Source: Dehalococcoidia bacterium (GTDB taxonomy: Bacteria > Chloroflexota > Dehalococcoidia > Dehalococcoidales > RBG-16-60-22). From it: a DNA stretch of 64,000 nt. Each line of letters begins with the position of its first letter. Positions within the stretch are counted from its first letter, which is position 1. The DNA lies in contig JBGLNK010000001.1 in NCBI GenBank assembly GCA_041300405.1, positions 1,418,545 to 1,482,544 on the forward strand. Reading direction: 5' to 3'. The notes under the pieces were generated by a model. The model worked only from the letters and a program-made list of their open reading frames with translations. It made no database searches and was not told the DNA's origin. This document shows positions 2,441 through 60,727 of the stretch, one piece after another. A program made the translations under genes and the position numbers.

Positions 2441-2522
2441 TCTCCCCCTCACCCCCGTATCGGAGTATGGGGCAGGCTTAATCCGACTGCGAGTCGGCCC
2501 TCTCCCTCGGTTGGGAGAGGAG
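2441..2522. repeat. cluster of short intergenic hairpins (CCTCTCCC/GGGAGAGG type)
   Basis: Hairpins CCGACT-GCG-AGTCGG (2483-2497) and CCTCTCCC-TCGGTT-GGGAGAGG (2499-2520); related motifs recur at 9323-9369, 15141-15169, 19290-19312, 20715-20822. Confidence 0.7.
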
Positions 2523-3431: not shown

Positions 3432-4168
3432 AGCACCTGCCCGGTAATAAAATCAGAGGCGGCAGAAGCGAAGAAAACCGCCGCGCCCAGCAGGTCTTCC
3501 GGCTCCTCGCGGCGCTGTAAGGTCTGTTCGGAGGTTGCCAGTTTGAAAGTCCCGTCGCTGTCCCGCTGTCCCAGGCTGGCTTCGGTGGTGGTATATCCGG
3601 GGGCAATAGCGTTTACATTGATGCCGGAGCCGCCGAGAGCCCGCGCCATGGCATGGGTAAAGGTATAAATAGTTCCCTTGGAGCAGGCATAGGGCAGAAA
3701 GACCTGCGCCGCAGGCACCTGCGGCACGTTGGAGGCGATGTTGATGATCTTGCCCTTGCCGGCTTTTGTCATTAGCGGGGCGATGGCTTTGCAACACAGC
3801 CAGGTGCCGATGACATTCACCTTAAAAATACGTTCCCAGTCAGCTACCGTCCAGGCATCCCAGGGCGTGATATTCAAGCCGTACCAGATAGCGGCATTAT
3901 TTACCAGAATATCTACTTTACCGTATTTTTTTATCACTTCCCCGGCCATCTTGTTCACAGATTTTTCATCAGAGATATCCGTGAGCGAGGCGGCAGCCTC
4001 ACCACCCATGGCTCGTATCTCCTTCACGGTTTCTTCGGCGCGTTCCAGGCTGATATCCGGCAGGAATAATCTGGCTCCCTCTTCGGCATATTTCAGCGCG
4101 AAGGCTTTTCCCAATCCGCGCCCTCCCCCGGTGATAACAGCTACTTTATCCTTTAATGCGGCTGACAT
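3413..4168 (-). CDS. SDR family oxidoreductase (FabG-like); C-terminus probably clipped by a few residues
   Basis: TGGGRGLG cofactor motif, YACSK catalytic motif; ends ...ITGQVLYVDTK where SDRs normally read VDGG plus a few residues. Confidence 0.8.
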   Translation of the reverse strand: MSAALKDKVAVITGGGRGLGKAFALKYAEEGARLFLPDISLERAEETVKEIRAMGGEAAASLTDISDEKSVNKMAGEVIKKYGKVDILVNNAAIWYGLNITPWDAWTVADWERIFKVNVIGTWLCCKAIAPLMTKAGKGKIINIASNVPQVPAAQVFLPYACSKGTIYTFTHAMARALGGSGINVNAIAPGYTTTEASLGQRDSDGTFKLATSEQTLQRREEPEDLLGAAVFFASAASDFITGQVLYVDTK

Positions 4169-21125: not shown

Positions 21126-22493
21126 ATAATAGTCACACAAGCTTTAGCCAAAAATATTGTCAATACAAACTACAATGACCTTCCTGATAAAGTGAGGGAA
21201 GTTACAAAAAGAAGCATCCTTGACACACTGGGGGTTATACTCCCGGCGACAACTTTGGAAAAGGCATGCATTTCAATTTACGAGTTGGCAAAGGAGGCGG
21301 GCGGCAAGGAAGAGAGTACCCTGCTGGGTTTTGGAGGTAAAATCCCTTGCTGGATGGCGGCTTTTGTCAACGGCTCATGTGCCCACGCCCTTGATTTTGA
21401 TGACTGTATAGTCGGGGAAAATCCAATACATCATCCCACTGCATCTACTTTCCCTGCAGCTCTGGCTGTCGCTGAGAAGATAGGGGGAGTGAGCGGCAAA
21501 GACTTTATTACCGCCGTCGCTTTAGGTAATGACCTGAGCATTAGAATAGCCTCGGGTCCCACAGGCAACACAATGATGGATTACCCTTTCTTCCCTGTTA
21601 GCACATTTGGCATCTTCAGTGCTGCGGCAGCATCCGGAAAACTGCTCAAACTATCCGAAGTAAAGATGTTAAATGCTCTAGGATTAGCTTTACACAGAGT
21701 TGGCGGTACCAATAATGCGGTGTTTGCACCTGATTCAGATGTAAGAGCAATTAGAGATGGTTTTACCAATCAAGAAGGTGTTATTTCAGCGCTTATGGCC
21801 AGCAAAGGAATAGCTGCGTGTAAAGACGCTATCGAACAGCTTTTTAAAGTCTATTACAACGACAGGTATAATCCCGAGCCTCTTACTTCAGATTTAGGAA
21901 AGAAATTTAGAGGATCTGAAACCGAATATAAAATCTGGCCGTCTTGCGGTCAAACCCACAATTATATTCAGGCTGCGTTAAATATCGCCAAAGAATATGA
22001 TATAAAGCCGGACGACGTTGAAGAGGTCATTATTACCGGAAGCCAAGATGGCGCACTGCATTCCAAACTTCCTGAAGCGGCGAGCCCGACCACAAGTATC
22101 GCCGCCAAGTTCTCGATTCCTTTTTGTGTCGCGGTGGCGCTTGTGAAACGGAGTGTAACAATCAGTGATTTTTTACCTCGGAATCTGGCATCCCCGGATG
22201 TCATAAGAATAGCCCAAAAAACGAAATTCAAGTTAGATCCGACCTTTGGATCTTTTACACGTGCCATCGTCGAAGTCAGAACAAGGGGAGGCGGACACTA
22301 TTCCTTCGACCTCAATAATACGAAACGGGAAAAAACAGGTGTTAACTTAGAAGATCTAATAACCAAATTCAATGATTGCGCCGGTTACTCTAAGAAGAAT
22401 CTTTCACAGGCAAGAATAAAAAAGCTGATTAACACAATCCTTCATCTGGAAAACGTGAATGATATGGGAGAAATTACAGATATTTTAGCCTGA
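21126..22493 (+). CDS. MmgE/PrpD family protein, low-GC paralog; no canonical start codon for the conserved N-terminus
   Basis: AAGGAGG (21113-21119) then ATA ATA GTC...; in-frame IIVTQALAKNIVNTNYNDLPDK is the typical PrpD N-terminal helix; first canonical start is GTG 21192. Confidence 0.75.
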   Translation: MIVTQALAKNIVNTNYNDLPDKVREVTKRSILDTLGVILPATTLEKACISIYELAKEAGGKEESTLLGFGGKIPCWMAAFVNGSCAHALDFDDCIVGENPIHHPTASTFPAALAVAEKIGGVSGKDFITAVALGNDLSIRIASGPTGNTMMDYPFFPVSTFGIFSAAAASGKLLKLSEVKMLNALGLALHRVGGTNNAVFAPDSDVRAIRDGFTNQEGVISALMASKGIAACKDAIEQLFKVYYNDRYNPEPLTSDLGKKFRGSETEYKIWPSCGQTHNYIQAALNIAKEYDIKPDDVEEVIITGSQDGALHSKLPEAASPTTSIAAKFSIPFCVAVALVKRSVTISDFLPRNLASPDVIRIAQKTKFKLDPTFGSFTRAIVEVRTRGGGHYSFDLNNTKREKTGVNLEDLITKFNDCAGYSKKNLSQARIKKLINTILHLENVNDMGEITDILA

Positions 22494-22634
22494 GAAACCT
22501 ATCTTTTATTGAATTAATGGCACCACTCTTAAGAATAAAATTTATTATTACCCGAGCAGAGATTTACTAACCCTTAATAACAATATATTTTATATAATTT
22601 ATTGTGATAGAAAAAAACTTATCAGGAAGTATTC

Positions 22635-23876
22635 ATGACGGACTGTTTAATTTACACTAAAGAAGAACAGAAGATGCTGGCACATTGGGATACAATTGAA
22701 AAAGAAGTCGGGTGGCTGGGAGATGACCCTGTTCCAGGTAAAATCACATATGCAGTATGTAATCGGGTGGCTACTAAAGACCTGATTTTAAATAGGGCTA
22801 ATAGCATCAATGATCCTAATCCTTTATGCCGGAATGACAAATATGCCCGTCAAACAAGATGGGGTTCCATCATAGCGCCGCCCTTTTTTGAATTGGTTAT
22901 TACGTTTCAAGGGCCGATAAACTTTAGGCCGATACCTCCTGAAGTCGGCATAGCCAGGGGGATGATGGGTTCAGGAACGCCGGGGAAAGAACAATCGGTA
23001 ATCTGGACTTATCTTCCACACTGGGAATTTTTCAAGCCGATACGCCCAGGTGATTCTTTCCGCGTTTGGTACGGTCCCAACAACCACATAGATAAAACCA
23101 GTCCGGATGGGAAAGGACCGCGCATTTTCCTGCTCCATGACCAGTTAAAATATTTTAATCAGAAGGGTGAACTCGTTGCCATTAAGCACAAAAGAAATTC
23201 GTATTATATAGTTGCACCGGAAGAACGGCAAAGGACAGCCCCTTCGATAAAACCCATGCCAAAGTTGGAGCCGTATAAATATACTCAACAAGAGCTTGAT
23301 TTTATAGATCGTGTCCGTGAAAACGAGATAATACGAGGCTCCAGGATACGCTGGTGGGAGGATGTCAAGACAGGGGAAGACCTGCAACCTGTTACTAATG
23401 GCCCAACCAATCTGTGGGACCAGGCCATAGATATAATAAGTTTGGGAACCACTCCTATTGAAGGGAAACAAGGTATTCCGCCTCATGTACCTATACTAGA
23501 TCCGGAAACCGGTGTCTGGCACAACCCTTCTGAGACCCATCTGTCAGATAGGGTAGCTCAATTACAAAACTTCCCCCAGGCTTACACAATGATGAGCTTA
23601 TGGGAGGCTCTGCTGGGCCGAATAATAACGAACTGGATGGGAGATGACGGTTTTTTAAAGAAAACCGCGTTTGACCGGTTTGAAAATGATATTTTTGGCG
23701 ATACTGTCATCGGCCGGGGCAAAGTGATAAAAAAATATATTCTGGACAACGGCGAGCACGTGGTTGACATTTCCTGCTGGCTGGAGAACATGCGGGGCTA
23801 TATTACCAAGGCTGGGACGGCTACGGTAAGCCTATTATCCAGGGAAAGTATCGATGATGACTTAATGCGCTATTAA
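22635..23876 (+). CDS. double hot-dog fold (MaoC/FAS1-like) dehydratase/hydratase
   Basis: N-terminal half NPLCRNDKYARQTRWGSIIAPPFF (MaoC N-terminal type); C-terminal half FGDTVIGRGKVIKK...VVDISCWLENMRG (MaoC type). Confidence 0.7.
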   Translation: MTDCLIYTKEEQKMLAHWDTIEKEVGWLGDDPVPGKITYAVCNRVATKDLILNRANSINDPNPLCRNDKYARQTRWGSIIAPPFFELVITFQGPINFRPIPPEVGIARGMMGSGTPGKEQSVIWTYLPHWEFFKPIRPGDSFRVWYGPNNHIDKTSPDGKGPRIFLLHDQLKYFNQKGELVAIKHKRNSYYIVAPEERQRTAPSIKPMPKLEPYKYTQQELDFIDRVRENEIIRGSRIRWWEDVKTGEDLQPVTNGPTNLWDQAIDIISLGTTPIEGKQGIPPHVPILDPETGVWHNPSETHLSDRVAQLQNFPQAYTMMSLWEALLGRIITNWMGDDGFLKKTAFDRFENDIFGDTVIGRGKVIKKYILDNGEHVVDISCWLENMRGYITKAGTATVSLLSRESIDDDLMRY

Positions 23877-23910
23877 ATTATCCGCGTATTTACTATCAGG
23901 GAGTTGTAGC

Positions 23911-24123
23911 ATGAGTAATGTTAAAGTAGGTGAAAAGATTAGAATAAAAAACCGGCCTGATTGGCCTTCGCCTCCAGGATATCAACTGGCTAATTCTGAA
24001 GGTGATGTTATTTCGATTATGCAGGAGGAGGGGTTTGTGACGATTCGATTGGTAAAAACCAGCACGGCCATACCAAAAGACACATGCCTGACTCTAAGAT
24101 TAGAGAATATAGAGAACAAATAA
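23911..24123 (+). CDS. small hypothetical protein (70 aa)
   Basis: GGGAG RBS, 34 nt after the previous gene, same strand and composition as neighbours. Confidence 0.45.
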   Translation: MSNVKVGEKIRIKNRPDWPSPPGYQLANSEGDVISIMQEEGFVTIRLVKTSTAIPKDTCLTLRLENIENK

Positions 24124-24218
24124 CTCTACCTGAAGCAAGAGAAGTTCGCTTGTTAACTTTGCAATGATATGCTTTCGAAACCGATAACAGACATAATCTT
24201 ACCAAAAGGAGTGAGCAC

Positions 24219-25058
24219 ATGAATAATAAACCGATTGTAGACCCGACTTTCGACCTGACACCCATGGGACCTGCAAAGCTTTTTGACAATTTCTATTATG
24301 TTGGTACGCAATCTGTAGGCTCATTCATAATCGATACCAAAGATGGAATAATTATGATTGATACCGGTTGGGGAGGACCGGATTGCAGTCTAATCGTGAA
24401 TGATATAAAAAAACTAGGTCTCAATCCGGGTAACATCAAATTGATATTAATATCCCATGAACACCTGGATCACTTCGGTGGAGTCCCCTACTTGAAGAAA
24501 AATGTTTGTCCTGAAGCTAAAGTTGCGATGAGTACGATAGGCTGGAATTATTTACAAGCCACACCGGCTGAGCCGCAGGGAAGACCTTACAGCAATCCGA
24601 GGCCTCAATCGATCGACATATTTTTAAAAGATAGACAGAAGATAACAATGGGTAATATTGTTGTCCAGATAATTTCCACCCCCGGTCATAGCTGGGGATG
24701 TGTTTCATTTATCGTTCCGGTAACCGATAACGGGAAACCTCATATGGCAGGTATTATGGGCGGTACGGTTCTTAGTCCTGACTGGAATAACGCCTATCAT
24801 TACAAAGCTTCAATAGAATATTTTAAAATATTTACCCGTAAATCCAAATGTGATGTCGGGCTGGGAGTTCATTTCTCGGGTTATGAAGCAAAGTTAATTG
24901 CGCTTCAGGCCAGAAAGCCCGGGGAAGCTAATCCATTCGTGATCGGCACAGAAAAGTTCGAATCCGTATATCTGCAGCAATATAGAGACAGATTTGAGTC
25001 TGCCCTCAAGCAAATGTCGCCTGAAGTATTTCCTCCTGCTCCTCCCTGGATAAAGTAG
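24219..25058 (+). CDS. MBL-fold metallo-hydrolase
   Basis: HEHLDHFGG (HxHxDH) motif; AAGGAG RBS. Confidence 0.8.
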   Translation: MNNKPIVDPTFDLTPMGPAKLFDNFYYVGTQSVGSFIIDTKDGIIMIDTGWGGPDCSLIVNDIKKLGLNPGNIKLILISHEHLDHFGGVPYLKKNVCPEAKVAMSTIGWNYLQATPAEPQGRPYSNPRPQSIDIFLKDRQKITMGNIVVQIISTPGHSWGCVSFIVPVTDNGKPHMAGIMGGTVLSPDWNNAYHYKASIEYFKIFTRKSKCDVGLGVHFSGYEAKLIALQARKPGEANPFVIGTEKFESVYLQQYRDRFESALKQMSPEVFPPAPPWIK

Positions 25059-25646: not shown

Positions 25647-26399
25647 TTATTCCTTTATTCCGTAGACTTCTCTCATGGATGGTTCATTTCCATCGCAATG
25701 GATTTCAATAGTATAAGAGTCGTACACGATTCGATCAAGGATAGCATCCGCCAGTGTCGCTTCACCGATCTTGGCGTGCCAGCCAGCCGGCGCAAACTGG
25801 GAACAGAAGATGGTAGACGCTCTCTTGTGCCGGCTGTGAATAATCTCAAGCAGGTCCCTCGCCTCGCTTTCTCTTAATGATACGAGCATCCATTCGTCCA
25901 GGATAAGCAGATTGATCTTCTGGTACTGGGCGAGCAGTTTCTTGATGGTACCTTCACCCCGGGCAATAGCCAGGTCGGTGAGTAAATCAGGCAGACGGAT
26001 ATACCTGGCGGAGTAAAACTTCTTACACGCCTCCATGCCCAGGGCGCAACAGATGTATGATTTCCCGGACCCGGTCGCGCCCATGATGATCACATTATGT
26101 TTTTCTTCGATGTAGGTACAGGCAGCAAGCCTGACGATCAGTGCCTGGTCAAGTTTTCGCTGGGCCATATAGTTAATATCGGCAATGTGAGCTTGAGGCT
26201 GATCGAATTTCGCGGTTTGTATGAGTTTTTTCAACCGGTTATTCTTCCGGCTGGTCCACTCGATATCGGTAAGCAGCCCGAGACGCTCTTCAAAGGACAG
26301 GCTCATCATATCCGGTACCTTTAGCTGTTCACGGAAAGCGCTGGCCATGGCGGTAAGCCGCATTTCTATCAGTTTCCCGATCGTTTCTTCGTTTGTCAT
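25647..26399 (-). CDS. istB: IS21 helper ATPase IstB
   Basis: Walker A GATGSGKSY, DEW Walker B, 4-nt ATGA overlap with istA. Confidence 0.9.
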   Translation of the reverse strand: MTNEETIGKLIEMRLTAMASAFREQLKVPDMMSLSFEERLGLLTDIEWTSRKNNRLKKLIQTAKFDQPQAHIADINYMAQRKLDQALIVRLAACTYIEEKHNVIIMGATGSGKSYICCALGMEACKKFYSARYIRLPDLLTDLAIARGEGTIKKLLAQYQKINLLILDEWMLVSLRESEARDLLEIIHSRHKRASTIFCSQFAPAGWHAKIGEATLADAILDRIVYDSYTIEIHCDGNEPSMREVYGIKE

Positions 26400-27940
26400 C
26401 TCGTTTTCCTCTCATAGTATTCGGCTCCACGGGTAAATCCATAAGGTGTTGCAGTACCGGGAGTAACCGGTTCGGAGTGACTCTCGATCTTATCCTGCCC
26501 GGTAGACAGAATTGTCTTTACGCTCTTGTAGCTGGGTACCGGCGTGTAAAACAGCGCCTTTTTGCAGGCAGCCTCCAGTCTGATCACCGAGTATTTGTCC
26601 GCCAGTTTGATGAGCGACAGGCAGCTTTTATACCCCTGCTGCTCTACCTTGTGAGACGACAGTATTGCCTTAACCGTCGTTTCCGTATTCGGGCCGATTT
26701 TCCTCGCCCAGTTGATAAACCGGTCGGCATTCCACTGGACATAGGCCTGGTGATCGGGCGGCATATGGGCTTCCATGGTACTGTACTGACCGGGGTAGCC
26801 GTATAACCGGGGATGGGAGCAGATACGATGATTATTGAAGAAGACTTCGATAACCTGCCTGGTTATCCGTACATCTACCTTGCGCTTGATATACTCGTAG
26901 GGCACCGAGTAATTCATCTTGTCTACGGTTATGTGGTAATTCAACTGGACGGTGGCGATTTTCCATGTCGCCAGCTCATACGGTGTACTGGGAAGCGGCT
27001 GCAGGAAAGGGTTTTCCTGCTCAAGGAACAGGCTAAGTCTGCTGCCTTCTTTCTTCTGGAACGGCTTTCGATTAAAGGCATCAAGTTTCTCTCGAATAGC
27101 CTGGTTTAGTGCTGGAAGACTAAAATATTTCTGATTGCGTAGGACGGCGATGATCCAGGTGGAGATATTACCGACTGTTCCTTCCGCGTTCGGCTTGTCT
27201 TTGGGTTTCCTGACGCGAGCCGGTACTACTGCCGTATCATAGTGCTCGGCCATCTCGTGGTAGACCTTGTTGATCGTCGGACTGTACCAGTCCGTCCGCA
27301 CCACTCCGGTCTTCAGGTTATCCGGCACCAGCAGCTTGCTGACTCCGCCATAGAAACGGTACATATTGACATGGGCGGCAATCCAGCATTCCTGGTCCCG
27401 GGCGAGGAAAGCTTCGACATAGGCATACTGGCTGTAGGAAAGAACCGCCACAAACACGTAGACGGGAATTATCTCGCCTGTTTCGTCATTGATAATAGCC
27501 GCTGTCTGTCCGGCCCAGTCGACTTCGATCTGCTCTCCCGGTTTACGCTGGATGTGCATGGTCGCCCGTTGGGTTTGTGCATACTGCTGATAGTGATAGC
27601 AAAACTGGGAGTACATCAGTGGCTGCTCGTTACTCAACCGGCAACTGGTACAATACTCGGTCCAGAGCAGCCTGAGTGTTACCCCGGATTTAGCCATCTC
27701 CTTATGGATGTACTCCAGATCCGGCTGCCGGCGTGATACAGGTGGTGTCGAGTCGGGGAAAAGCAGTTTCTCCAGGTCGCCGTCCGTCAGATCATCCTTC
27801 AGCGGCCATTCGATACTCGTTTCCTTTGCCCGTGCCAGCACTCTTTTCACTGTATTCCGTGAGCACTGGCAGCTTGCGGCAATCCCGCGCTGACTGATCC
27901 CCCGGCTGTGAAGCCGGAGAATCTCCCGATAGTTGGTCAT
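26396..27940 (-). CDS. istA: IS21 transposase IstA
   Basis: 514 aa, N-terminal HTH (GISQRGIAASCQCSRNTVKR) and DDE core typical of IstA. Confidence 0.9.
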   Translation of the reverse strand: MTNYREILRLHSRGISQRGIAASCQCSRNTVKRVLARAKETSIEWPLKDDLTDGDLEKLLFPDSTPPVSRRQPDLEYIHKEMAKSGVTLRLLWTEYCTSCRLSNEQPLMYSQFCYHYQQYAQTQRATMHIQRKPGEQIEVDWAGQTAAIINDETGEIIPVYVFVAVLSYSQYAYVEAFLARDQECWIAAHVNMYRFYGGVSKLLVPDNLKTGVVRTDWYSPTINKVYHEMAEHYDTAVVPARVRKPKDKPNAEGTVGNISTWIIAVLRNQKYFSLPALNQAIREKLDAFNRKPFQKKEGSRLSLFLEQENPFLQPLPSTPYELATWKIATVQLNYHITVDKMNYSVPYEYIKRKVDVRITRQVIEVFFNNHRICSHPRLYGYPGQYSTMEAHMPPDHQAYVQWNADRFINWARKIGPNTETTVKAILSSHKVEQQGYKSCLSLIKLADKYSVIRLEAACKKALFYTPVPSYKSVKTILSTGQDKIESHSEPVTPGTATPYGFTRGAEYYERKTR

Positions 27941-28175: not shown

Positions 28176-29274
28176 GGTGCTCACAACAAAATTACTCCTG
28201 CTATTCAGGCTATTTTCATCCTGAATTAGCCTGTTCTCATCATTTAGGCACACTACGCCCTTGTCATTTGTAATTCTCGTCTTACCATGTACAGGTTGGC
28301 CAGGGCAAACAGACTAAATACCTGCGCCGCGTTTTTAAACAGCCCCTTGTACCTTACTTTCTGATAATGCCACAGATGCTTTACTACCAGAAAAGCGTGC
28401 TCCCCTTTGGCTCTTACCTGGCTTTGCTTGTGATTGTACTCCACATCTTCAGGAGAGAGTTGATAATGCCGGCAAGCTTTACGATTCACGCACCATTTGA
28501 TTCCCCTGTCTTCATACTCTTTTCTCTTCTTTTCACTGGTATAGGCCTTGTCACCGTAAACTGCCTTTTCCTCTCCATGCAGCAGGTCGTCCATGACTTG
28601 TGAATCGTGAACTCCAGCATCCGTGACCACGATACTGTGCGCCAGACCGGTCTTAGTATCTGTACCTACATGCGCCTTCATGCCAAAATACCATTGATTT
28701 CCCTTCTTCGTCTGTTTCATCTCTTTGTCTCTGGTGTTTTCTCGGTTCTTCGTAGACGACGGAGCGTTGATGATCGTGGCGTCAACAATCGTCCCTTCTC
28801 TTAATAGCAACCCTTTTTCTGTAAGATAACGTTGCGTCTTATCGAATATCTTCTTGGTTAGCTTATGCTTTTCCAGTAGATGCCGAAAGTGTAATATCGT
28901 GGTCTCGTCTGGTATCACATCCGCAGCAATATCAATGCCGGCAAATCGTCTCATTGACTCGCTATCATAAAGCCCGTCTTCCATCGCAGGGTCGGACAGC
29001 GCGTACCACTGCTGCATGAAATATACCCGCAGCATCATTTCCATGGGCATAGGCTGTCGGCCGTTACCAGCTTTGGGATAATATTCTTCAATGATTTGCA
29101 TTAAATCCTTCCAGGGAATCACTCGGTCCATTTCTTGAAGAAATTTTTCACGTCTGGTCTTCCTTTTCTTGTTATCATAGGCAAGGCTGGCGAATGATAA
29201 TGTATTCACCTTCAACTCCCATTCGTAGACTTGCTTCAATTATAGCTGATGGACAGGAGTTTTTCAGAGTTTCC
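28176..29274 (-). mobile_element. IS5-family insertion sequence (boundaries approximate)
   Basis: Imperfect inverted ends GGTGCTCACAACAAAATTACTCCTGCTATTCAG / rc GGAAACTCTGAAAAACTCCTGTCCATCAG; about 1.1 kb with a single transposase. Confidence 0.7.
28253..29239 (-). CDS. IS5-family DDE transposase
   Basis: 328 aa; LRVYFMQQWYALSDPAMEDGLYD..., GTIVDATII, YGDKAY blocks typical of IS5-group transposases. Confidence 0.9.
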   Translation of the reverse strand: MKQVYEWELKVNTLSFASLAYDNKKRKTRREKFLQEMDRVIPWKDLMQIIEEYYPKAGNGRQPMPMEMMLRVYFMQQWYALSDPAMEDGLYDSESMRRFAGIDIAADVIPDETTILHFRHLLEKHKLTKKIFDKTQRYLTEKGLLLREGTIVDATIINAPSSTKNRENTRDKEMKQTKKGNQWYFGMKAHVGTDTKTGLAHSIVVTDAGVHDSQVMDDLLHGEEKAVYGDKAYTSEKKRKEYEDRGIKWCVNRKACRHYQLSPEDVEYNHKQSQVRAKGEHAFLVVKHLWHYQKVRYKGLFKNAAQVFSLFALANLYMVRRELQMTRA

Positions 29275-40623: not shown

Positions 40624-41506
40624 ATGGCACCAGGAAAGAGAATGACAGAAGCTGCTAAATCTCCGGTTGAAGAAACGAAAATAGATTATGCCGGGTCTGC
40701 TATAGGTTGCGCGAGGATCAACCCCGCCAGTTCTTATGGAGCAGTCCCGATGTTGTTAAAAAATTATATTGACACCGGTTCAGTGCCGGTCTGGGAAGAG
40801 ATTCGTCAAAGAATTGATAATACCTATCTGGCCGTCAGCGCTGCCATGCAAGCCCTGGATAAAGAGACATCTTTTTCCGGGGATGTTAGGAGACAGGTAA
40901 AGGGCGGGAAGAAGTTGTTTTTTAAACCAAACCTGGTATCGCTGCCGGCCATAGACCCCAGGACCCACAATCCGGTACTGTGGGGAACCTGCCTGCCTTG
41001 GGAATTCCTGTCAGCCGTGATGCGCTGGTTCCATGATGAGATGAATATTTCTTATCATCAAATGGCACTCGGAGAAGGGGGTGCGGGGACCGCGGCGGCT
41101 GCCTTTACGACATCCAGACTTTGGGGCGGCCGGACGGTGACCACCCAGGCATTGATGGAAGGAAAATCAGGGGAAAACTATGGTGGGTGGGGGTTCTACT
41201 TCGCTAGAAAGTACCTGGCGGAATCCCATAATTCCAAACATTCGGATGACCCCATGCAAGGTTATGAGGAAAGTCTTTCCGGCCATTGCCTGCCTCCGGG
41301 ACAGGTCAGCGACAAATTACTAATTTATGACCTTAATAAAATAGCGGACGATAGGTCTGACGGCCGTGAAATACCGGTGCCTGATGGCATTAACTTCAGG
41401 AATATAATTATCCATAAAGCTGTTGTGGGCGGTAACCCGGGTGACAGTGAAGACCTGAGGAATTGGCCTGGATGCGTTCTGGTGAATGTGACCAAGTTGA
41501 AAATAC
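40624..41506 (+). pseudogene. DUF362-family protein, 5' part, interrupted by IS3
   Basis: AAGGAGG RBS; GGKKLFFKPNLVS motif typical of DUF362; reading frame runs into the IS3 inverted repeat at 41507. Confidence 0.65.
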
Positions 41507-41586
41507 TGAGGTGGACCCCAAAATTCGGACAGGTTGTTAAGGTGGAATCTTGCTCTTAAAATAAAATGGGAGAAAAGGAGCAAGAC

Positions 41587-41871
41587 ATGAAAGGAAACCG
41601 CAGGAAGCACAACCAGTCGTTCAAGGCCAGGGTAGCGCTGGAAGCGCTTAAAGGAGAAGCAAGCATTGCCGAGATTGCCAGCCGCTATGAAGTCCACCCC
41701 AATCTGGTAACCAAGTGGAAGAAAACCCTCCAGGATGAAGCTGCCGGTATCTTCGGTGAAGACCATGCCCGTAAGAAGAAGCAGGGTGAAAACCTGGTTG
41801 CTCAGTTGTACCAACAGATAGGCCAGCTCAAGGTAGAAAAGGATTTTTTAGAGAATGTGCTGCGTCGCTGA
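41587..41871 (+). CDS. IS3 OrfA (HTH protein)
   Basis: AAAGGAG RBS; FKARVALEALKGEASIAEIASRYEVHPNLVTKWKK typical of IS3 OrfA; slippery T TTT TTA at 41844-41850. Confidence 0.85.
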   Translation: MKGNRRKHNQSFKARVALEALKGEASIAEIASRYEVHPNLVTKWKKTLQDEAAGIFGEDHARKKKQGENLVAQLYQQIGQLKVEKDFLENVLRR

Positions 41872-42774
41872 GTCTCGAAGAGAAGCGCCGCGGAGTCGAG
41901 CGAACGTCTTCCCTGCCCATCACACGCACGTGTCGGTTACTGGGCATCAGCCGCTCGGTTCTCTACACCGGTCGAAAGGGCCGCAAGATAAGGAACATGC
42001 GCTCATGAAGCTGATCGATCGGCAATATCTGCTGACGCCGTTTTACGGGTCGCGCAAGATGGCCGTCTGGCTCAGAGAGAGGGATATGCCGTCAACCGCG
42101 AGCGGGTGCGGCGTCTGATGAGATTGATGGGGCTGCGGGCCATCTACCGGCGGCCCCGGACGAGTAAGCCTGCGCCGGGGCACAAGGTCTACCCATACTT
42201 GCTCGGCGGCATGAATATCACCCGGCCGGACCAGGCTTGGGCGGCGGACATCACGTATATCCCGATGAAGCTAGGTTTTCTGTACCTAGTGGTCATCATC
42301 GACTGGTACAGCCGCTGCGTGCTCTCCTGGAGACTCTCCAACACCCTTGAGGCAGATTTCTGTATCGAGTCCTTGAAAGACGCCCTCAAGAAAGGCAAGC
42401 CAGAGGTATTCAATACCGACCAGGGCAGCCAGTTTACCGCAGAAGCTTTCACGGAAATACTGAAAAAACATGATATCCGGATCAGCATGGATGGAAAGGG
42501 AATTTATAACGACAATCTTTTCATCGAGAGGCTATGGCGAACGGTCAAATACGAGGAAGTCTACCTGAAAGCCTACCGGGATGGAACGGAAGCCTGGCGC
42601 AGCCTGGACAGCTACTTCCGCTTCTACAATAACGAGCGCCCACACCAGTCTCTGGGCTACCGCAACCCGGCGGAAGTCTATGCTGGAACTCTGGAACCTA
42701 TCAATGGAGGTATGGTACAATCCCTATCATCAACAGCAGGATTCCACCTTATCTTGAGGTGCCCGAATGGGTAA
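41845..42774 (+). pseudogene. IS3 OrfB (DDE transposase) with two extra frameshifts
   Basis: The expected -1 frame (LSLEEKRRGV..LLGISRSVLY) stops at 42006; homology continues in another frame (LMKLIDRQYLLTPFYGSRKM) and shifts again near the AGAGAGAGGG run 42073-42083 (GYAVNRERVRRLMRLMGL...DQGSQFT...NNERPHQSL). Confidence 0.8.
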
Positions 42775-42781: not shown

Positions 42782-42927
42782 AGCTGGAACGAGTTCGAGA
42801 AAAACATCCCCCTGTGAAAACGGAAGACGGGATAATAAAGGACTTCGGCCTCAATATGTTCCGCGATGAGAACTGGCAGAAACGCGCGGGAACGTTATTG
42901 GTTGATGGCAATAAAAGGAGGTCTTAA
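42782..42927 (+). pseudogene. 3' part of the IS3-interrupted ORF
   Basis: In frame with 40624-41506 once the 1275-bp IS is removed; its stop TAA overlaps the ATG of the next gene (TAATG). Confidence 0.5.
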
Positions 42928-43667
42928 TGGTAATACCAGCAATACTGGACAAGAAGGACAAGGACATCATTTCACAAGAGTTCAGGGATGCTGTCGGGGC
43001 GGATAAAGTGAAGGATGATGACGTGGTTTTAGCAGCCTACGGCTCTGATTCCAGTTATGTGCCTTTTCGCAAGCCGAACTGGGTGGTTCTTCCCGAAACT
43101 AAGGAAGACGTAGCAGCGCTTCTGAAGCTCGCCAATAAACATAAGATTCCTGTAGCCGCTTTCGGCCGGGGGGTCAATATTGCCGGATACGGTGTGCCCT
43201 CGGAAGGCGGCATTGTGATGGACCTCCGGCGCATGGACAAGATATTCGAGATAAATACCGATTCAGGATATGCCGTTATTGGACCCGGCGTCACCTTCGA
43301 CCAGTTCGCGGTAGCGTTAGCCAAAAAGGGGTATCGATGCCCTTTACCTACGGGACCGGGCGGCGGCTCCGCTATTGGTACCTATCTGATGAGACCATCG
43401 CAGAACATGGTCACCAAGCGTCTCGATCCCATCGTAGACCTGGAAGTAGTCCTGGCGGACGGTACGATTTTCAATACCGGTTCATCGCATTTTGCTAACG
43501 GTGGCAGTGGCATGAGATATGGTCCATACCCTGACCTGTCCGGGATATTTTGCTACGCTTATGCCACTATGGGGATAGTCACCAGTGCCTCCGTGACGAT
43601 TTACCCGATAAATGAGGCTAACCGCGTCAACGTAGCGGCCTTCGATAATTTCCCGGCCCATATTTGA
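42927..43667 (+). pseudogene. FAD-linked oxidase (VAO/GlcD-type FAD_binding_4), 3'-truncated
   Basis: PNWVVLPETKEDVAALLKLANKHKIPVAAFGRGVNIAG and downstream FAD-binding blocks; stops at 246 aa, so the substrate-binding/cap domain is absent. Confidence 0.65.
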
Positions 43668-44101
43668 AAATTCTTCCCAGAAATGATATATTCAGACTCA
43701 TATCATTAATTTTGCCCATATCGTATTTTTACGTTCAGAATTGTTTTAAAAATTACCCCAATCGTCCATCCTTTCCAAGTGATTCGAGTCTATCCTGGAT
43801 AACCCAGGCATCAACTAGCCGATATTTCAGACCAATGCCAGGCGAGAGAATCCAAATGGACACATGTAGAATAGCCTCCGGTATTTATCAATATACTTGT
43901 AGTTGATGGCTTTACCCGTTATCAGGTGATGGAGATATTTCCAGCCTATGCAGCTGCCAATACTATTCTGTTCCTTGAGAAAATGGCTGAACAAATACGT
44001 TTCCCTGCTGCACAGAGTAATCCAGACTAACTAAGCCGGGGAATTCTTCGCCTACAAGGTATAAAATGGCCGCGGGAATACTACACTAAAATTCATGTCT
44101 T

Positions 44102-45466
44102 CTAACTTGTCGGAAGCAAATACAATATGATATCACCCACATTTGTTCCTGTGCTTCCAGTCAATATTATACTGTTTCCGGTTTCTTTTAACAGAACATA
44201 ACTATTATAACGCTCCAGATAAGAACGGATATCACAGTTCTTCTTTTTCAGATTATCCAGGCTGCTTACATCCACAATTGCTCCGGCAACATCAGACATA
44301 TAGTCCGAACCATCGGTAGCCACGCTTGCCGATAACCATTCACCCGGATAATTTTTAAAGAGAAACATTGTAAGGGCGGCATAGTGTTGATTTCTCCCAC
44401 CTATTCCATGATTATCGGGAAGTACCGGAGTCGTCTCTCCACCGATTATAATAGCATCATAGTTTTTATAAATTACATTCAGTATTTCTTGTGCTCTTTG
44501 ACGGGCCGCAGTTGCGGTATCCCCTGTTTGTTCAGCGGTGACGATGAAAGGCCTGAATCCCGAAGAACTTGCCTTTTCCGCCATCGCTTCCAGTGCCAAA
44601 CGATTATCCCCTATAATGTAATTCCTTGCATTCTCAAGCAGCTTTGGTGTTTCTTCAAATTTTTCTTGACAGCCTCTTTCCAGTACGGTCAATATGTTTT
44701 CCGGTACTTTATGGAGAAGGTTATATTTTTCGATGACCTGTCGGGCATCTGAATAGCTTGTAGAATCGGGATAAGTAGGTCCGGAAGCAATGATGCTCAT
44801 ATCGTTCCCCACCACATCGGACAGGATAAGGGACAAAACAGTAGCGGGATAATAATGTTGTGCCAGTCTTCCGCCCTTTATCCCGGATAGATGCTTCCTG
44901 ACGGTGTTGATTTCATGGATATCAGCGCCGCATGAAAGGAGCAGCCCGGTAACCTTTTGTTTATCACCGAGAGACAGACCGTCCGCCGGGTACGGCATCA
45001 AAGCTGAACCTCCGCCGGAAATAAGACAAATGACCATGTCATCTTTACCTATTGCATACTTGTGCTTTAAATCGAGCATAGCCCGGGTCGCTTTAATTCC
45101 GCGTTCATCCGGTAGAGGGTGACCTGCCTGCATAACCCTGATTTTTTTTAACTTGAATTCTTCCGGGGCGGCTTTGTCGATGACGATGCCAGCTTCTATA
45201 TTCTCCGGACCGGTGATTTTCTCCAGTGTCTGAGCCATCAATCCGGAGGCTTTTCCCCCGCCGATAACGAAAATCCGGCCGGTTACTTTCTGGCTATTTT
45301 TATTGACAGAAAATGTCCTTGTCGCCGGGTCAAAAGAGACCGCAGTCTGCATGACGGCGCCCGGCAGGACTCTCTCTATCCCTGCTTCTATAATGTCGAG
45401 TGCCTTTTCTCGCAACCTGCTTGTAGCCAGCTCTCGTCTGTTCTTAATAATCATTCTCTGGTCCAT
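44102..45466 (-). CDS. glycerate 2-kinase / hydroxypyruvate reductase-like (DUF4147 + MOFRL)
   Basis: 454 aa; VIGGGKASGLMA, ICLISGGGSALM, GGETTP..GIGGRNQ motifs of the MOFRL glycerate kinase family. Confidence 0.8.
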   Translation of the reverse strand: MDQRMIIKNRRELATSRLREKALDIIEAGIERVLPGAVMQTAVSFDPATRTFSVNKNSQKVTGRIFVIGGGKASGLMAQTLEKITGPENIEAGIVIDKAAPEEFKLKKIRVMQAGHPLPDERGIKATRAMLDLKHKYAIGKDDMVICLISGGGSALMPYPADGLSLGDKQKVTGLLLSCGADIHEINTVRKHLSGIKGGRLAQHYYPATVLSLILSDVVGNDMSIIASGPTYPDSTSYSDARQVIEKYNLLHKVPENILTVLERGCQEKFEETPKLLENARNYIIGDNRLALEAMAEKASSSGFRPFIVTAEQTGDTATAARQRAQEILNVIYKNYDAIIIGGETTPVLPDNHGIGGRNQHYAALTMFLFKNYPGEWLSASVATDGSDYMSDVAGAIVDVSSLDNLKKKNCDIRSYLERYNSYVLLKETGNSIILTGSTGTNVGDIILYLLPTS

Positions 45467-46739
45467 CTCGCTTTAGAGATGGCAGGACATGAGGCCCCTG
45501 TGGGATCACCGCAATTTCTGCACTTTGGCCCAATGCCGCTAGAGCTCTTGATAACCCTTCGTCAACAGAAGGAATAGCCGCTATTTTCATATTACGTACC
45601 TGTTCCTGCTTGAGACCGGACATGAGAAGTACTTCATGTTCGAGCTGAGCCCGCGCCAGGAACAGGTTCTGCCAAGTCACGCCGGCGTGTTCTCCCTGCT
45701 TTATTCTTTCAAGAACCTCTGTTGGCGTAGCAGCCGATGAATGTAAATCGTAAAAAGACCGGGGACCTATACCGGCGTCACATCGGGCAGCTACGATAAT
45801 AATTCCACCGCTTTTTGTAATCTGTGCCGCGGTATCAATTGCCTTGCAAGTCTGGTAGAGATCAATATCCAGAGGTGCTCCGCCGCAGGTCACGATAGAA
45901 ATATCAACCTGATGATCAATGCAGGCCGTAGCCAGATGCTTTTCCAGTTCACAACCTTGTTCATGGGCAATCACCGGGTCTCCGGCAAATACATCCGTGA
46001 TTTCCCCTTTTTCATTAAGGAGCACGTTAACAATAAAATTCAGTCCCGCCATTTTCGCCTGTTCAATCATATCCTCGTGAACCGGATTACCGTGAAGAAC
46101 ACCTGCACGGGCATTCTTATCCTTAAGCATCGAGTAAGAATGATTATGGCATATGGCCCTTTCGCTGGAGACGCCGGGGGCTATGCTCTTTCTTCCTCCG
46201 GAAAAGCCGGCAAAAAAATGCGGCTCGATGAATCCGGTACTTATTTTAATATCTGCTTCAGCTACCTTTTTAAAAATCTCTATCGGTGTTTCCCGTGATG
46301 TCGTTCCTAGAGAAACCACATCATTAACATCGTGGTTGATGGTCCTGTAGTTTTCCACGATATTACGCCCTAACTTTTTCAGCATCTCCTTTTCACTGAG
46401 GGGTTGATGCAGACCCAGTGCCACGACAATCGTGATGTTACGCCGCGGTACTACTGGTTCGATTGCTTCTAGAATGGGTGGCAGGAGTATGCTGTCGGGA
46501 CAGGCTCTTGTATTGTCTGTGGTAATAATCACCACTTTATCGTTTTTCCCAGGAAGTGAGCCCAGCGGGGGGCTGTTGATAGGATTTTTAAGTCCCCCTC
46601 GAATAGCTTCTATCTCATCGTCAAGCTGGTGGCTTTCCTTCCTTTTCAGGATGGAAACAAGATTATTAGCGGGTATCGAAACTTTAAGAAATGATGTGCC
46701 GTACGGCAAATCGACTATCGTTTGTTTTGAAAAATTCAT
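45444..46739 (-). CDS. LarA-like nickel-pincer-dependent 2-hydroxyacid racemase/epimerase (DUF2088)
   Basis: 431 aa; GLHQP and GFIEPHFFAGFSGGRKSIAPGV...CHNHS blocks corresponding to the LarA catalytic His and cofactor-binding Lys/His positions; 23-nt overlap with the kinase gene. Confidence 0.75.
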   Translation of the reverse strand: MNFSKQTIVDLPYGTSFLKVSIPANNLVSILKRKESHQLDDEIEAIRGGLKNPINSPPLGSLPGKNDKVVIITTDNTRACPDSILLPPILEAIEPVVPRRNITIVVALGLHQPLSEKEMLKKLGRNIVENYRTINHDVNDVVSLGTTSRETPIEIFKKVAEADIKISTGFIEPHFFAGFSGGRKSIAPGVSSERAICHNHSYSMLKDKNARAGVLHGNPVHEDMIEQAKMAGLNFIVNVLLNEKGEITDVFAGDPVIAHEQGCELEKHLATACIDHQVDISIVTCGGAPLDIDLYQTCKAIDTAAQITKSGGIIIVAARCDAGIGPRSFYDLHSSAATPTEVLERIKQGEHAGVTWQNLFLARAQLEHEVLLMSGLKQEQVRNMKIAAIPSVDEGLSRALAALGQSAEIAVIPQGPHVLPSLKRDGPENDY

Positions 46740-47127
46740 GTGTAGTTAAATTGTACCATTTCCTGTATCTGATTTCATAGATTCTACTAGACGTAAAAAG
46801 CGCTTAAGTTTTCTGTATGAGCCTCCAGGTCCTATTTCGAAAGAAACACTACCTCACCACCGTCCCACTTGTGCCAGGTGCTTAGATCCGCCGCTTTGGT
46901 TATCCTATTCATGATCAAATACTTCTTGCCCTTTCGTATCATGCCTGAGTATCTCTGGTTGTTCCGTTTCCATGTTTATCAGACAGGAATGATAACCTAC
47001 CCGTTATAAATAGTGCACTTGGCAATAATAGTGTTGCAGGTATACCTTACTCACGTTGTTTTCTTTACAGCGCTATTCTTAGATACGCTCTTAGCTGTAT
47101 CTCCTCCAACTTATTGATAATCCTCTT

Positions 47128-47973
47128 TTACTTTGTGATTTTACCGTCCAGATCCCAAAGGTCTTCCCAGCTTTTCGCACCTTCCCAGAGGAATACCTGC
47201 CCTTTGATTAAACGACAGTTTTTATCGATGCCTTCGAGTAATTCCATCTCGGCATCGGTAAGAGGGTCTTCAATTGTGCTGCGCAAGTTGCTCACGTAGT
47301 TAAATTCATGGATAGAAAAAGGAATGGCGATTTGGCCGCGCTGTACAGCCCATTTCAGGCAGATGATCGCAGGATGCACGTGATGTGCTTTGGCGATTTC
47401 GACAAGTTCCGGTATCTCCAGGTCGACGACGTCGTCTTTAGTTTTGTCACGGTCGGGACGATTGGGCGAACCGATAGGGCAGAAACTTACTACCTGAATG
47501 TCGCGCTCAATACAGTAATGGAACAGTTCCGGCTGTTGGAAGCTCGGATGGAGTTCTATCTCGATCAAAGCAGGTTTAATACGGCACAGCGGTAATACTG
47601 CATCAAGCTTGGGTATAGTCATGCTGGACATGCCGATATTTTTCACCAGGCCCATATCGACCAACTTTTCCATCTGACGCCAAGTAGCCATGAAGCAGTC
47701 GGCAGAGAAAGGCTTCGAGTCGGGATTGCGGGCGTCTTTGTCGCACCCGGGAGCGTGGTAGTTCGGAAACGGCCAGTGCACGAAATAGGTGTCGAGATAA
47801 TCCAGTTGTAAATCTTTCAAACTTTTAGCACAGGATAACAGCACATCACCCTTGCCGTGCTTATCATTCCATACCTTAGACATAATGAATAGTTCTTCAC
47901 GTTTGATTGTCTTGTTTTCGATGGCCCCGGCAAATACTTTGCCGATCAGGTCTTCGTTGCCGTAAACAGAAGC
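47128..47973 (-). pseudogene. aldo/keto reductase, 5'-truncated
   Basis: Frame is open upstream of the track Met: ..ASVYGNEDLIGKVFAGAIENKTIKREELFIMSKVWN.. (AKR motif); the first ~45 aa, including the catalytic Asp/Tyr region, are missing. Confidence 0.7.
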
Positions 47974-47976
47974 AAC

Positions 47977-48363
47977 AAGCTTATCGCACAGGCGGAGAAA
48001 GACCGCACCATCCTTAAATACAAGACGGTTATCAACTGGGAAAAAGCAGGCGACGACCAGGTATGGGCATTAATCGAAGTCAGGGTCGCACCGCAAAAAG
48101 ACGTCGGCTTCGACGCTATTGCCGAGCGTATAGGACGCTTCCCGCAGACGCGCTCGGTCTACTTAATATCCGGGACTTACGATCTGCATGCGCTGGTAGT
48201 GGGTAAAACGAACCGCGAGATAGCGGACTTCGTATCGCAGCAGCTTTCACATATCGAAGGGGTGCATGAAACAGTCACGCAGTTCGTGCTGAAACGCTAC
48301 AAGGAAGACGGGGAGGTAATGGGGGGCGGCGAGACGGCGAAACGCCAATCAGTAATCCTCTAA
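47977..48363 (+). pseudogene. Lrp/AsnC family regulator, 5'-truncated (HTH missing)
   Basis: No start codon; translates KLIAQAEKDRTILKYKTVINWEKAG...SGTYDLHALVVGKTNREIADFV...GVHETVTQFVLK (RAM/AsnC ligand domain only). Confidence 0.7.
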
Positions 48364-48390
48364 ACCGGTTTTACGGGTCAGGAGTCATAT

Positions 48391-49587
48391 ATGTCAGCAG
48401 AAAAAACTATTCAAAAAATCAAGTATAAGAAGATAATTTCGGACCGGGCCAACAAGCTGTCGCCCTCCGGAATACGCAAGTTCTTCGACCTGCTGGCGTC
48501 CATCGAAGGCGTTATCTCGCTGGGCGTCGGCGAGCCCGATTACGCTACGCCCTGGCACATCTGCGAAGCCGCGGTAAAAAGCCTGGAAAATGGTTATACG
48601 ATGTATACATCCAACTCCGGCATACCCGAACTGCGCGAGTTAACGGCTAAATACCACAAGGAAAAATACGGCCTGGATTATAATCCTTACGGCGAAATGC
48701 TGATTACTGTAGGCGTCAGCGAAGCCCTCGACCTGACCATGCGGGCTATCCTGAATCCCGGCGACGAAGTAATCATGACCGACCCGCATTACGTGGCCTA
48801 TGACTCCTGTGTTATCCTGGCTGAAGGCGTGCCGGTAATGGTGCCGACCTACGAAAAAAGCGGCTTCGAGGTGGATGCCGCCGACATCGAGTCCAGAATA
48901 ACATCGAGAACGCGCGCCATCCTCATCGGCTATCCTTCCAATCCAACGGGCGCCGTCATGCCGCGCGAGAAGCTGGAAGCCATCGCCGACCTGGCCAGGC
49001 GGCGGAACCTCATTGTTATTTCCGATGAAATATACGCCCGTCTGAATTACGGCACCGAGCATACCTGTTTTGCCAGCCTGCCCGGGATGAAAGACTACAC
49101 GATTTTACTGGGCGGCTTTTCCAAGGCTTACGCCATGACCGGCTGGCGGGTGGGATACGCCATGGCCCCGGCGGAAATCATCGCCGCCATGACCAAGATA
49201 CACCAGTACACGATAATGAGCGCCCCTACCCCGGCCCAGGTGGCCGCCATCGAGGCTTTTAAGACAGGAGAGAAGGACGTGGTGGAAATGGTGGCAGACT
49301 ACAACCAGCGGCGGAAAGTCATCGTTAAAGGATTACGCGATATCGGCATGAGCTGTTTCGAGCCGAAGGGCGCTTTTTACGCATTCCCTTCAATTACCTG
49401 CACCGGCATGACATCGGAGGAATTTTCCGAAGGTCTGCTTAAAGAGGAGAAGGTAGCCGTGGTGCCCGGTTCGGCCTTTGGCAAGTGCGGCGAGGGCTAC
49501 GTGCGCTGCTGCTACGCCACTTCCATGGCTGACATAGAGGAAGCTTTAAAGCGCATCGGGCGGTTTGTGAAAAAGTACCGGAAGTAA
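48391..49587 (+). CDS. class I/II pyridoxal-phosphate aminotransferase (aspartate aminotransferase-like)
   Basis: 398 aa; SNPTGAV, SKAYAMTGWRVGY (PLP lysine) motifs. Confidence 0.9.
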   Translation: MSAEKTIQKIKYKKIISDRANKLSPSGIRKFFDLLASIEGVISLGVGEPDYATPWHICEAAVKSLENGYTMYTSNSGIPELRELTAKYHKEKYGLDYNPYGEMLITVGVSEALDLTMRAILNPGDEVIMTDPHYVAYDSCVILAEGVPVMVPTYEKSGFEVDAADIESRITSRTRAILIGYPSNPTGAVMPREKLEAIADLARRRNLIVISDEIYARLNYGTEHTCFASLPGMKDYTILLGGFSKAYAMTGWRVGYAMAPAEIIAAMTKIHQYTIMSAPTPAQVAAIEAFKTGEKDVVEMVADYNQRRKVIVKGLRDIGMSCFEPKGAFYAFPSITCTGMTSEEFSEGLLKEEKVAVVPGSAFGKCGEGYVRCCYATSMADIEEALKRIGRFVKKYRK

Positions 49588-60193: not shown

Positions 60194-60727
60194 GTGCAAA
60201 GTACGGCAGATAAAAGCAAAATAAAGGTTTTTACCCCCGGGAAAATAGGCAGCATGGAACTGCGCAACCGCACTATCAGGTCCGGTTGTTTCGAGGGGAT
60301 GTGTGCGTACGCTGCGCCCGGCGAAGCATTAATCGAACATCACAGGAAAGTCGCCGCCGGCGGCATCGGCATGACCACCGTGTCTTATTGCGCCGTATCT
60401 GCGGATGGAGTGGCCTTCGAACATGAGATGTGGATGCGGGAAGAGATTGTCCCCGCTTTGAAACGGCTCACGGATGCCGTGCACCGGGAGGGCGCCGCCG
60501 CCTCGATACAATTGGGGCATTGCGGTTTCTTCGCCAACAGGTTTGCCATCGGAAAGACTCCTATCGGCCCTTCCCGCAAGTTTTGCCTCTTCCGGTACAG
60601 CGTCTGCCGCGCGATGAATGAAGAAGATATCGGGCGGGTGCGGGAGGACTTCGGCAGGGCGGTAAAAATGGCGGTGCAGGCCGGGTTCGACGCCGTGGAA
60701 ATCCATGCCGGGCATGGGTATCTTTAA
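60194..60727 (+). pseudogene. NADH:flavin oxidoreductase (Old Yellow Enzyme family), first ~177 aa only
   Basis: LRNRTIRSGCFEG.., AAASIQLGHCG, GFDAVEIHAGHGYL then stop; homologs continue LSQFLSP.. Confidence 0.75.

Follow-up and report, generated by a model that had tools for sequence, protein, structure and literature searches.

We consider a pair of genes on the minus strand of a 64,000-nucleotide stretch of DNA from a Dehalococcoidia bacterium (contig JBGLNK010000001.1), the whole of which we call the window. The first gene codes for a homolog of the lactate racemase LarA, of the LAR type of 2-hydroxyacid racemases that need nickel-pincer nucleotide (NPN) as their cofactor. The second codes for a class II (MOFRL) glycerate kinase, and its start overlaps the stop of the racemase gene (Table 1). 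Both open reading frames (ORFs) lie exactly where a preliminary description, made from the letters alone, had placed them. The overlap of 23 nt that it reported holds for the longest kinase ORF, which is read from the first ATG. From the conserved start, however, the overlap is probably 11 nt, because the one start kept across the homologs is that at residue 5 (MIIKNR; the ATG at 45454 in the window): the upstream ATG is absent in two relatives (L096 and L011), and a third (L098) has a GTG at the conserved start position. On this comparison the ATG at 45454 is the probable true start of the kinase, giving a product of 450 residues.

Table 1. Features at and around the gene pair, in window coordinates
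Feature	Position	Strand	Remarks
LarA homolog (LAR-type NPN-dependent 2-hydroxyacid racemase)	45444..46739	-	431 aa, intact; from Pfam, PDB matches, residues
Class II (MOFRL) glycerate kinase	44102..45466	-	454 aa by longest ORF; from Pfam, PDB matches
Stop/start overlap of racemase and kinase genes	45444..45466	-	at most 23 nt; 11 nt (45444..45454) if read from conserved start
Upstream region of racemase	46740..47127	-	388 nt, kept within the block shared with L001
Aldo-keto reductase pseudogene, 5'-truncated	47128..47973 (ORF 47128..47883)	-	lacks ~56 N-terminal codons
Block (truncated aldo-keto reductase, racemase, kinase)	44092..47973	.	3.9 kb, 95.6% DNA identity to metagenome contig L001 (blastn)
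GlcD-like fragment	42927..43667	+	246 aa, Pfam FAD_binding_4 only
IS3-like transposase, split over three ORFs	41566..42774	+	from ORF translations

Both ORFs of the pair are full length, and the ratio of nonsynonymous to synonymous substitution rates (dN/dS) against the closest relatives found, on the metagenome contig L001, is 0.20 for the racemase and 0.19 for the kinase, values of purifying selection. Because the truncated aldo-keto reductase (AKR) gene gives a similar value against the same contig (0.17), dN/dS cannot exclude a recent loss of function; it does not reveal recent inactivation and is uninformative on current function. The kinase gene, intact in the window, is frameshifted in the relatives L001 (11274-12636) and L011 (763-2213). 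The PfkB, FGGY and short-chain dehydrogenase/reductase (SDR) genes of L001 are also split, so that indel errors of long-read assembly are as likely an explanation of the frameshifts as real decay.

The racemase and the kinase

The racemase has the domain architecture of the LarA superfamily, with Lar_N (DUF2088, PF09861; E-value 1.5e-62, residues 13-212) followed by LarA_C (PF21113; 4.2e-28, residues 277-418), both far above their gathering scores. Its matches in the PDB (by HMMER) are 2yjg (2.4e-78) and 5huq (1.9e-73), both solved lactate racemases, to which it is 36.5-36.8% identical. The motifs singled out in the preliminary description are all present, namely GLHQP (residues 109-113), EPHFFAGFSGGRKS (172-185) and CHNHS (197-201), and they align as it had supposed with the catalytic histidines and the tethering lysine of LarA. 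Residue by residue, H111, H174, K184 and H200 align with H108, H174, K184 and H200 of the Lactiplantibacillus (L.) plantarum LarA, while R78, Y295, Q296 and K299 align with the carboxylate-binding R75, Y294, Q295 and K298. The complete set of catalytic, cofactor and carboxylate-binding residues is thus kept, and it is invariant in 17 members of the clade.

The substrate pocket is that of the LAR group. The residues F175, F176, W356 and Q357 occupy the LarA positions F175, F176, W358 and T359, and lactate racemases usually carry F, F, W and E/Q at positions 175, 176, 358 and 359 of LarA (Urdiain-Arraiza et al., J Biol Chem 2024, PMC11770544). Because these four residues match the 2024 rule, we assign the protein, on its sequence, to the LAR type; it is neither a malate racemase nor a new specificity class. 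A place inside a characterised specificity group had been named beforehand as an argument against a special role for this protein. The LAR signature effectively gives it such a place, yet it scores below every NCBIfam equivalog cut-off (LarAH6 418.6/500, LarA (NF033504) 418.2/460, LarAH5 351.6/462, LarAH10 307.6/540). In a neighbour-joining tree the protein falls inside a Dehalococcoidia-rich clade, apart from the Firmicutes LarAs (~37% identical). It is an uncharacterised new member of a known group, and it brings no new chemistry or protein family.

Two candidate assignments were tried and rejected. The top NCBIfam score, that of LarAH6, would suggest a malate racemase, but it lies below the cut-off and the specificity residues rule this reading out: at the W358/T359 positions the window protein has W-Q and not H/Q with K, and it has F-F and GRK in place of the Y-K loop and GHK. 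The second candidate took Gln357 as the sign of an enzyme that uses glycerate. Gln stands at this site in 51 of 93 sampled homologs and Glu in 39, and there is no association with kinase linkage (Fisher p = 0.43).

The kinase has the full-length class II architecture, with DUF4147 (PF13660; 3.1e-79) and MOFRL (PF05161; 5.1e-23), and its closest solved relatives are PH0495 (1x3l; 8.2e-78 over aligned residues 22-451) and TM1585 (2b8n; 1.7e-72). The characterised members of the MOFRL family accept glycerate exclusively, with a preference for the D form (the L form gives 13-34% of the D activity), and their only product is 2-phosphoglycerate (2-PG) (PMC2063504). By analogy, the window kinase would share this specificity and this product, and the preference for D-glycerate makes sense of a racemase gene placed upstream.

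Conservation of the gene pair

Is the coupling of a racemase and a glycerate kinase found beyond this contig? A neighbourhood survey of LarA homologs, of the kind that the preliminary description had proposed, does find MOFRL pairing, both among close homologs and at 2 of 80 wider loci. The close homologs are the 11 other distinct LarA homologs that are 61-96% identical to the window racemase (the subclade, below). Nine of them have a MOFRL kinase directly downstream on the same strand (racemase identities 96, 83, 82, 81, 79, 78, 69, 65 and 61%), and at the junctions the two genes overlap by 4, 4, 11/23, 20 and 50 nt or stand 4 and 13 nt apart. The tenth (71%) has an N-terminal remnant of the kinase in the same position. 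The other neighbours vary by contig and include AKR, zinc-dependent alcohol dehydrogenase (Zn-ADH), aldehyde:ferredoxin oxidoreductase, class II aldolase, metallo-beta-lactamase-fold proteins and FAD oxidoreductase; the pair is therefore the conserved unit. The identities of racemase and kinase to the window copies co-vary as well (r = 0.99 over 6 pairs), so the two have been passed on jointly. The conservation of the pair is strong. The metagenome part of this comparison, a scan with a single protein as query, comprises 7 loci.

Two of these neighbourhoods deserve a separate description. The kinase remnant (L002 1872-2171 / L003 2033-2332) is 100 residues long and 48% identical, and lies between the 71% racemase and an amidase gene, a natural case of a broken racemase-kinase pair. 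In L011, which carries the 82% relative, a protein with DUF362 and a 4Fe-4S ferredoxin domain (2440-3561) is convergent to the racemase-kinase pair; the 2024 paper (PMC11770544) took DUF362 as outgroup when it drew its LarA superfamily tree.

We turn to the wider sample, 80 species-representative genome loci whose LarA homologs are 35-59% identical to the window racemase. The LAR catalytic set is kept in all 80, and a glycerate kinase of either class stands at 7 of them (2 MOFRL and 5 of the Gly_kinase family, PF02595). One of the MOFRL cases, in a Bacteroidales metagenome-assembled genome (MAG; L038), lies with a hydroxypyruvate-isomerase-like TIM barrel, a class V aminotransferase and a transporter of the lactate-permease family; the other, in a Clostridiales MAG (L093), has the order KdgT permease, racemase, MOFRL kinase. 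The Gly_kinase gene is ~1.3 kb downstream of the LarA homolog in L065 and L084 (a CdaR-type regulator intervenes in L065), ~5 kb away within a gene cluster in L017 and L018, and ~2 kb upstream in L062; an order seen in Oscillospiraceae is pyruvate kinase, racemase, CdaR-type regulator, Gly_kinase. A close homolog of the L093 racemase, in the cultured strain Pseudoflavonifractor capillosus ATCC 29799, has a Gly_kinase gene directly downstream. Independent pairings with one or the other kinase family thus span Bacteroidales, Clostridia, Dehalococcoidaceae and Verrucomicrobiota. That MOFRL is swapped elsewhere for the unrelated Gly_kinase points to glycerate kinase activity as such as the functional partner of the racemase, and it is the strongest argument for this view.

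Two of the wider loci are rich enough in genes to be described by themselves. In the Dehalococcoidaceae MAG L018 (1812-16613, all on one strand) the genes are an HpcH/HpaI aldolase, an aldehyde:ferredoxin oxidoreductase, a ferredoxin-like ORF, a LarA homolog (Glu type), a hydroxypyruvate-isomerase-like (hyi-like) TIM barrel, two GlcD-like subunits with a CCG Fe-S subunit, Gly_kinase and a D-2-hydroxyacid dehydrogenase. This looks like a sugar-acid or glycolate-to-glycerate route that contains the racemase. The P. capillosus locus (L100 4648-10521, AAXG02000047.1) stands behind a sigma-54 activator and has the order KdgT permease, DUF1537 acid-sugar kinase, PdxA-family dehydrogenase, LAR-type LarA homolog, Gly_kinase; a nickel racemase is here in the company of a glycerate kinase as well as of typical threonate/erythronate-catabolism genes.

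A candidate route for L-glycerate and its genomic setting

Taking the two proteins and the conserved pair together, we regard it as reasonably probable that the two genes are a catabolic module in which L-glycerate is racemised to the D form and then phosphorylated to 2-PG. The reaction expected of the racemase is inversion at C2 of a small 2-hydroxyacid through proton-coupled hydride transfer, in which His111 and His174 would form the acid/base pair. The in vivo substrate of the racemase is most likely glycerate, with flux running from L-glycerate (or a DL mixture) to D-glycerate, and lactate is a likely second substrate. The kinase, whose overlapping gene is probably translationally coupled to that of the racemase, would use ATP to convert D-glycerate into 2-PG, which would pass through enolase into lower glycolysis. 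The L-glycerate might arise when sugars or sugar acids are degraded by way of aldehydes (glyceraldehyde or tartronate semialdehyde), a tentative suggestion made because aldehyde-handling and aldolase/dehydratase genes are frequent neighbours. The NPN cofactor would be supplied by the host. That the racemase feeds D-glycerate to the kinase had been proposed in the preliminary description; the comparative context supports it well, with 9 of 11 subclade homologs paired and two kinase families involved, but not as a new specificity class. The accompanying statement that no glycerate activity had been assigned to the family is out of date, as LAR-group enzymes have been shown to racemise glycerate in vitro (Urdiain-Arraiza et al., J Biol Chem 2024, PMC11770544).

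Several observations weigh against this route. The eleventh subclade homolog (L004, 63%) has no adjacent MOFRL kinase, nor does any of the nearest relatives outside the subclade (54-60%), and some relatives outside it adjoin GlcD-like D-2-hydroxyacid oxidases, which fits lactate equally well. On the sequences compared, no residue marks glycerate use. The canonical substrate of the LAR group, now known to accept glycerate and 2-hydroxybutyrate as well, is lactate, and LarAH43, a member with a slight preference for glycerate, uses lactate almost as well. The window kinase lies below the cut-offs of the two NCBIfam glycerate 2-kinase models (228/550 and 217/670), which we take from their names to be archaeon-specific. 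The enrichment in the wider sample, which speaks for the route (7 of 80, P from 4e-8 to 3e-4), is reckoned against a background put by assumption at 0.4-1.6% per locus, and this figure is a guess. Finally, no larB, larC or larE domain is found among the 46 window ORFs of at least 150 aa scanned with Pfam, as the preliminary description had said of the window, and in a foreign-looking block with a truncated neighbour both expression and cofactor supply can only be presumed.

This last point calls for a closer look at the DNA around the pair. The window and L001 are unrelated on both sides of the shared block. The order AKR, racemase, kinase is the same in L001, whose racemase is 96% identical to that of the window, and there the three genes lie within a larger sugar/sugar-acid cluster with FGGY kinase, PfkB kinase, class II aldolase, RbsD/FucU, Zn-ADH, SDR, ABC permeases and an altronate/galactarate-dehydratase-like gene. 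In the window the Pfam match of the AKR begins at profile position 76 of 291, and the homology to the full-length L001 gene sets in at 'ASVYGNE' and ends at 47973. The racemase gene has 47.1% GC with a GC content at third codon positions (GC3) of 0.44, and the kinase gene 45.9% with a GC3 of 0.45. Because eight housekeeping-type or core genes of the window have a GC3 of 0.57-0.75, and L001 is ~47% GC throughout, the block looks like a horizontally acquired fragment that has lost its upstream neighbour. Its edges carry no boundary repeats or insertion sequence (IS) remnants; short repeats occur there at chance level only, and the flanks are unique. The 388 nt upstream of the racemase are presumably its promoter region. 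Rfam gives no match at E <= 1 over 43500..48500, and promoter- or terminator-like sites around the pair are no commoner than in shuffled sequence.

The other features around the pair bear out the decayed flanks of the preliminary description, which had also called the pair isolated and low in GC. Its low GC stands in comparison with the eight core genes; it is not unique, since the region at 21-25 kb is equally low. Beside the truncated AKR there is, outside the shared block, the GlcD-like ORF, which holds the N-terminal FAD domain, has no coding continuation in any frame and scores far below the cut-off of NCBIfam glcD. Next to it lies the split transposase, which we take to be IS3-like from what we recognise as orfA/orfB sequence features.

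Elsewhere in the window there is an IS21-type pair (IstB 25647..26399, transposase 26396..27940), which a DDE_Tnp_1 transposase (28253..29239) adjoins; with the IS3-like element, these make the window rich in mobile elements. A second low-GC island (21192-25058; GC 0.41-0.45, GC3 0.42-0.46) lies beside this IS cluster. It comprises a second PrpD/MmgE-like gene together with two ORFs, one of a dehydratase fold and one of a metallo-beta-lactamase fold, and is perhaps a further acquired segment. An ORF of the Old Yellow Enzyme type (60194-60727) covers only profile positions 1-178 of 342 and is truncated or frameshifted. Just 5' of the IS3-like element ends an ORF of 311 aa (40624-41559) that has no Pfam or NCBIfam match; its stretch 'KKLFFKPNLV' may resemble DUF362, a relative of the Lar_N domain.

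Such surroundings suggest an alternative, unlikely in our view, in which the pair is a non-functional passenger here, a recent fragment of a larger sugar-acid cluster that came without cofactor biosynthesis and is decaying like its neighbours. The homology to L001 is confined to the block and cuts through the reductase gene, the GC3 of the pair differs from that of the core genes, IS elements and truncated genes lie around, and no larBCE is found among the scanned ORFs of the 64 kb. On the other hand, both ORFs are full length here while the kinases of L001 and L011 are frameshifted; all functional residues and the 388-nt upstream region are kept, at a dN/dS of ~0.2 that the truncated reductase roughly shares. 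The absence of larBCE is also less telling than it seems, as these genes are often unlinked to larA homologs (the association is 33-42% even in group 1).

A second alternative, to which we give slightly less credence still, accepts an active racemase and makes it a lactate racemase. The glycerate kinase would then work on its own, on D-glycerate of other origin, and the two genes would share no more than a regulation in C3-acid metabolism. The residues F, F, W, Q are the published lactate-racemase signature, the closest solved structures are lactate racemases, and both JGI and NCBI annotate relatives as such. Dehalococcoidia homologs adjoin GlcD-like FAD oxidases (of the D-lactate/glycolate oxidase types), as the window pair adjoins a GlcD-like fragment. 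Within the subclade, however, the pair has neither a lactate permease nor any lactate-specific gene beside it. The sole invariant neighbour is the kinase, with frames that usually overlap and sequences that co-diverge, and in other lineages the MOFRL protein is replaced by a kinase that shares its activity and not its ancestry.

Least probable, and in our judgement very unlikely, is a role on another polyhydroxy acid, by C2 epimerisation of erythronate/threonate or racemisation of 2,4-dihydroxybutyrate/2-hydroxybutyrate, with the MOFRL protein phosphorylating the product: the P. capillosus homolog does come after a DUF1537 acid-sugar kinase and a PdxA-family dehydrogenase, both of which reportedly take part in threonate/erythronate catabolism in work by Zhang and colleagues that appeared in PNAS in 2016, but neither gene stands beside the pair in the window's subclade. 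LAR enzymes are measurably active on 2-hydroxybutyrate, 2,4-dihydroxybutyrate and 4-deoxy-threonate/erythronate, but their activity on C4 acids is 100- to 1000-fold below that on lactate/glycerate (PMC11770544), and the tested MOFRL kinases accept glycerate only (PMC2063504).

We return to the glycerate route and to what it would mean. Glycerate chemistry is already known in this group of enzymes; the novelty lies in a coupling of a LAR-type racemase to glycerate kinases that is conserved and recurs, with a likely physiological role. Whether LAR-type racemase plus MOFRL or Gly_kinase is a recurrent, previously undescribed L-glycerate salvage module of anaerobes (Dehalococcoidia, Clostridia, Bacteroidales and others) is an evenly balanced proposition. 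If it is, this would be the first physiological role for glycerate racemisation: L-glycerate, a poor substrate of the kinase, would be made into the D form for 2-PG formation, and, probably arising from sugar-acid/aldehyde metabolism, it would be a real substrate in these habitats. Annotations as 'nickel-dependent lactate racemase' may then conceal glycerate enzymes. P. capillosus ATCC 29799 is a cultured strain in which the idea is testable.

Relation to known racemases and kinases

In the literature searched, neither the phrase 'glycerate racemase' nor a relevant combination of LarA and glycerate kinase is found. COG2379 and COG1929, presumably the COGs of the MOFRL and Gly_kinase glycerate kinases, are absent from the 2020 genomic-context table. 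The 2024 paper leaves the physiological meaning of glycerate racemisation for future work, and its text makes no mention of kinases, nor does it describe the genomic neighbourhood of LarAH43 (PMC11770544).

LarAH43 (Enterocloster asparagiformis) is among the closest known systems. On glycerate its kcat/KM is 1.14e5 M-1 s-1, on lactate 0.83e5, a slight preference that the authors put down to a Gln at the T359 position (PMC11770544). By this published description the window protein, with F, F, W, Q, is like LarAH43 in its LAR group and in its Gln; it differs in belonging to a Dehalococcoidia-associated clade that is ~37% identical to the Firmicutes LarAs. The N-terminus of LarAH43 has no match among 240 homologs, and the published primers match none of the sampled loci.

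The same Gln is shared with LarA_Ip (also Sar or LarAH2; Isosphaera pallida, 9EIA; E-value 4e-66 against the window protein), which, like LarAH43, takes glycerate. L-glycerate is its third-best substrate (PMC11851776), and in its crystal structures Trp356-Gln357 line the pocket for the C-alpha substituent. In place of Phe175/Phe176 of the window protein LarA_Ip carries Leu174/Met175, and its pocket is larger and more plastic, with a broad spectrum (PMC11851776).

With the lactate racemases LarA (5HUQ of L. plantarum and 2YJG of T. thermosaccharolyticum) the window protein shares the two-domain fold family, the His pair, the Lys tether, the Ni-binding His, the carboxylate-binding Arg/Tyr/Gln/Lys, the FF loop and the Trp. 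It differs in the Gln, which replaces T359 of L. plantarum and a Glu of T. thermosaccharolyticum, and in a Cys for V297; moreover, the pair has no lar operon, lactate permease or larBCE nearby and is coupled to a glycerate kinase instead. The malate racemase Mar2 (LarAH6, 6D6Z) gives the best NCBIfam score and is similar in the N-terminal domain (for example GTTSRETPIEIF versus GTTKRGTPVEVF). However, Mar2 has a Y-K loop, GHK, a Gln before the catalytic Lys and a Lys in helix 14; the corresponding features of the window protein are F-F, GRK, Cys and Trp-Gln.

The kinase, for its part, shares the DUF4147 plus MOFRL architecture with the class II glycerate kinases of T. tenax, P. torridus, T. 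maritima (TM1585) and P. horikoshii (PH0495). The partner of the archaeal enzymes is glyceraldehyde oxidation, in the non-phosphorylative branch of the Entner-Doudoroff pathway, and no racemase partner has been described for them. The window kinase, which scores below the NCBIfam equivalog cut-offs, differs from the class II enzymes in that it stands in an operon with a LarA homolog.

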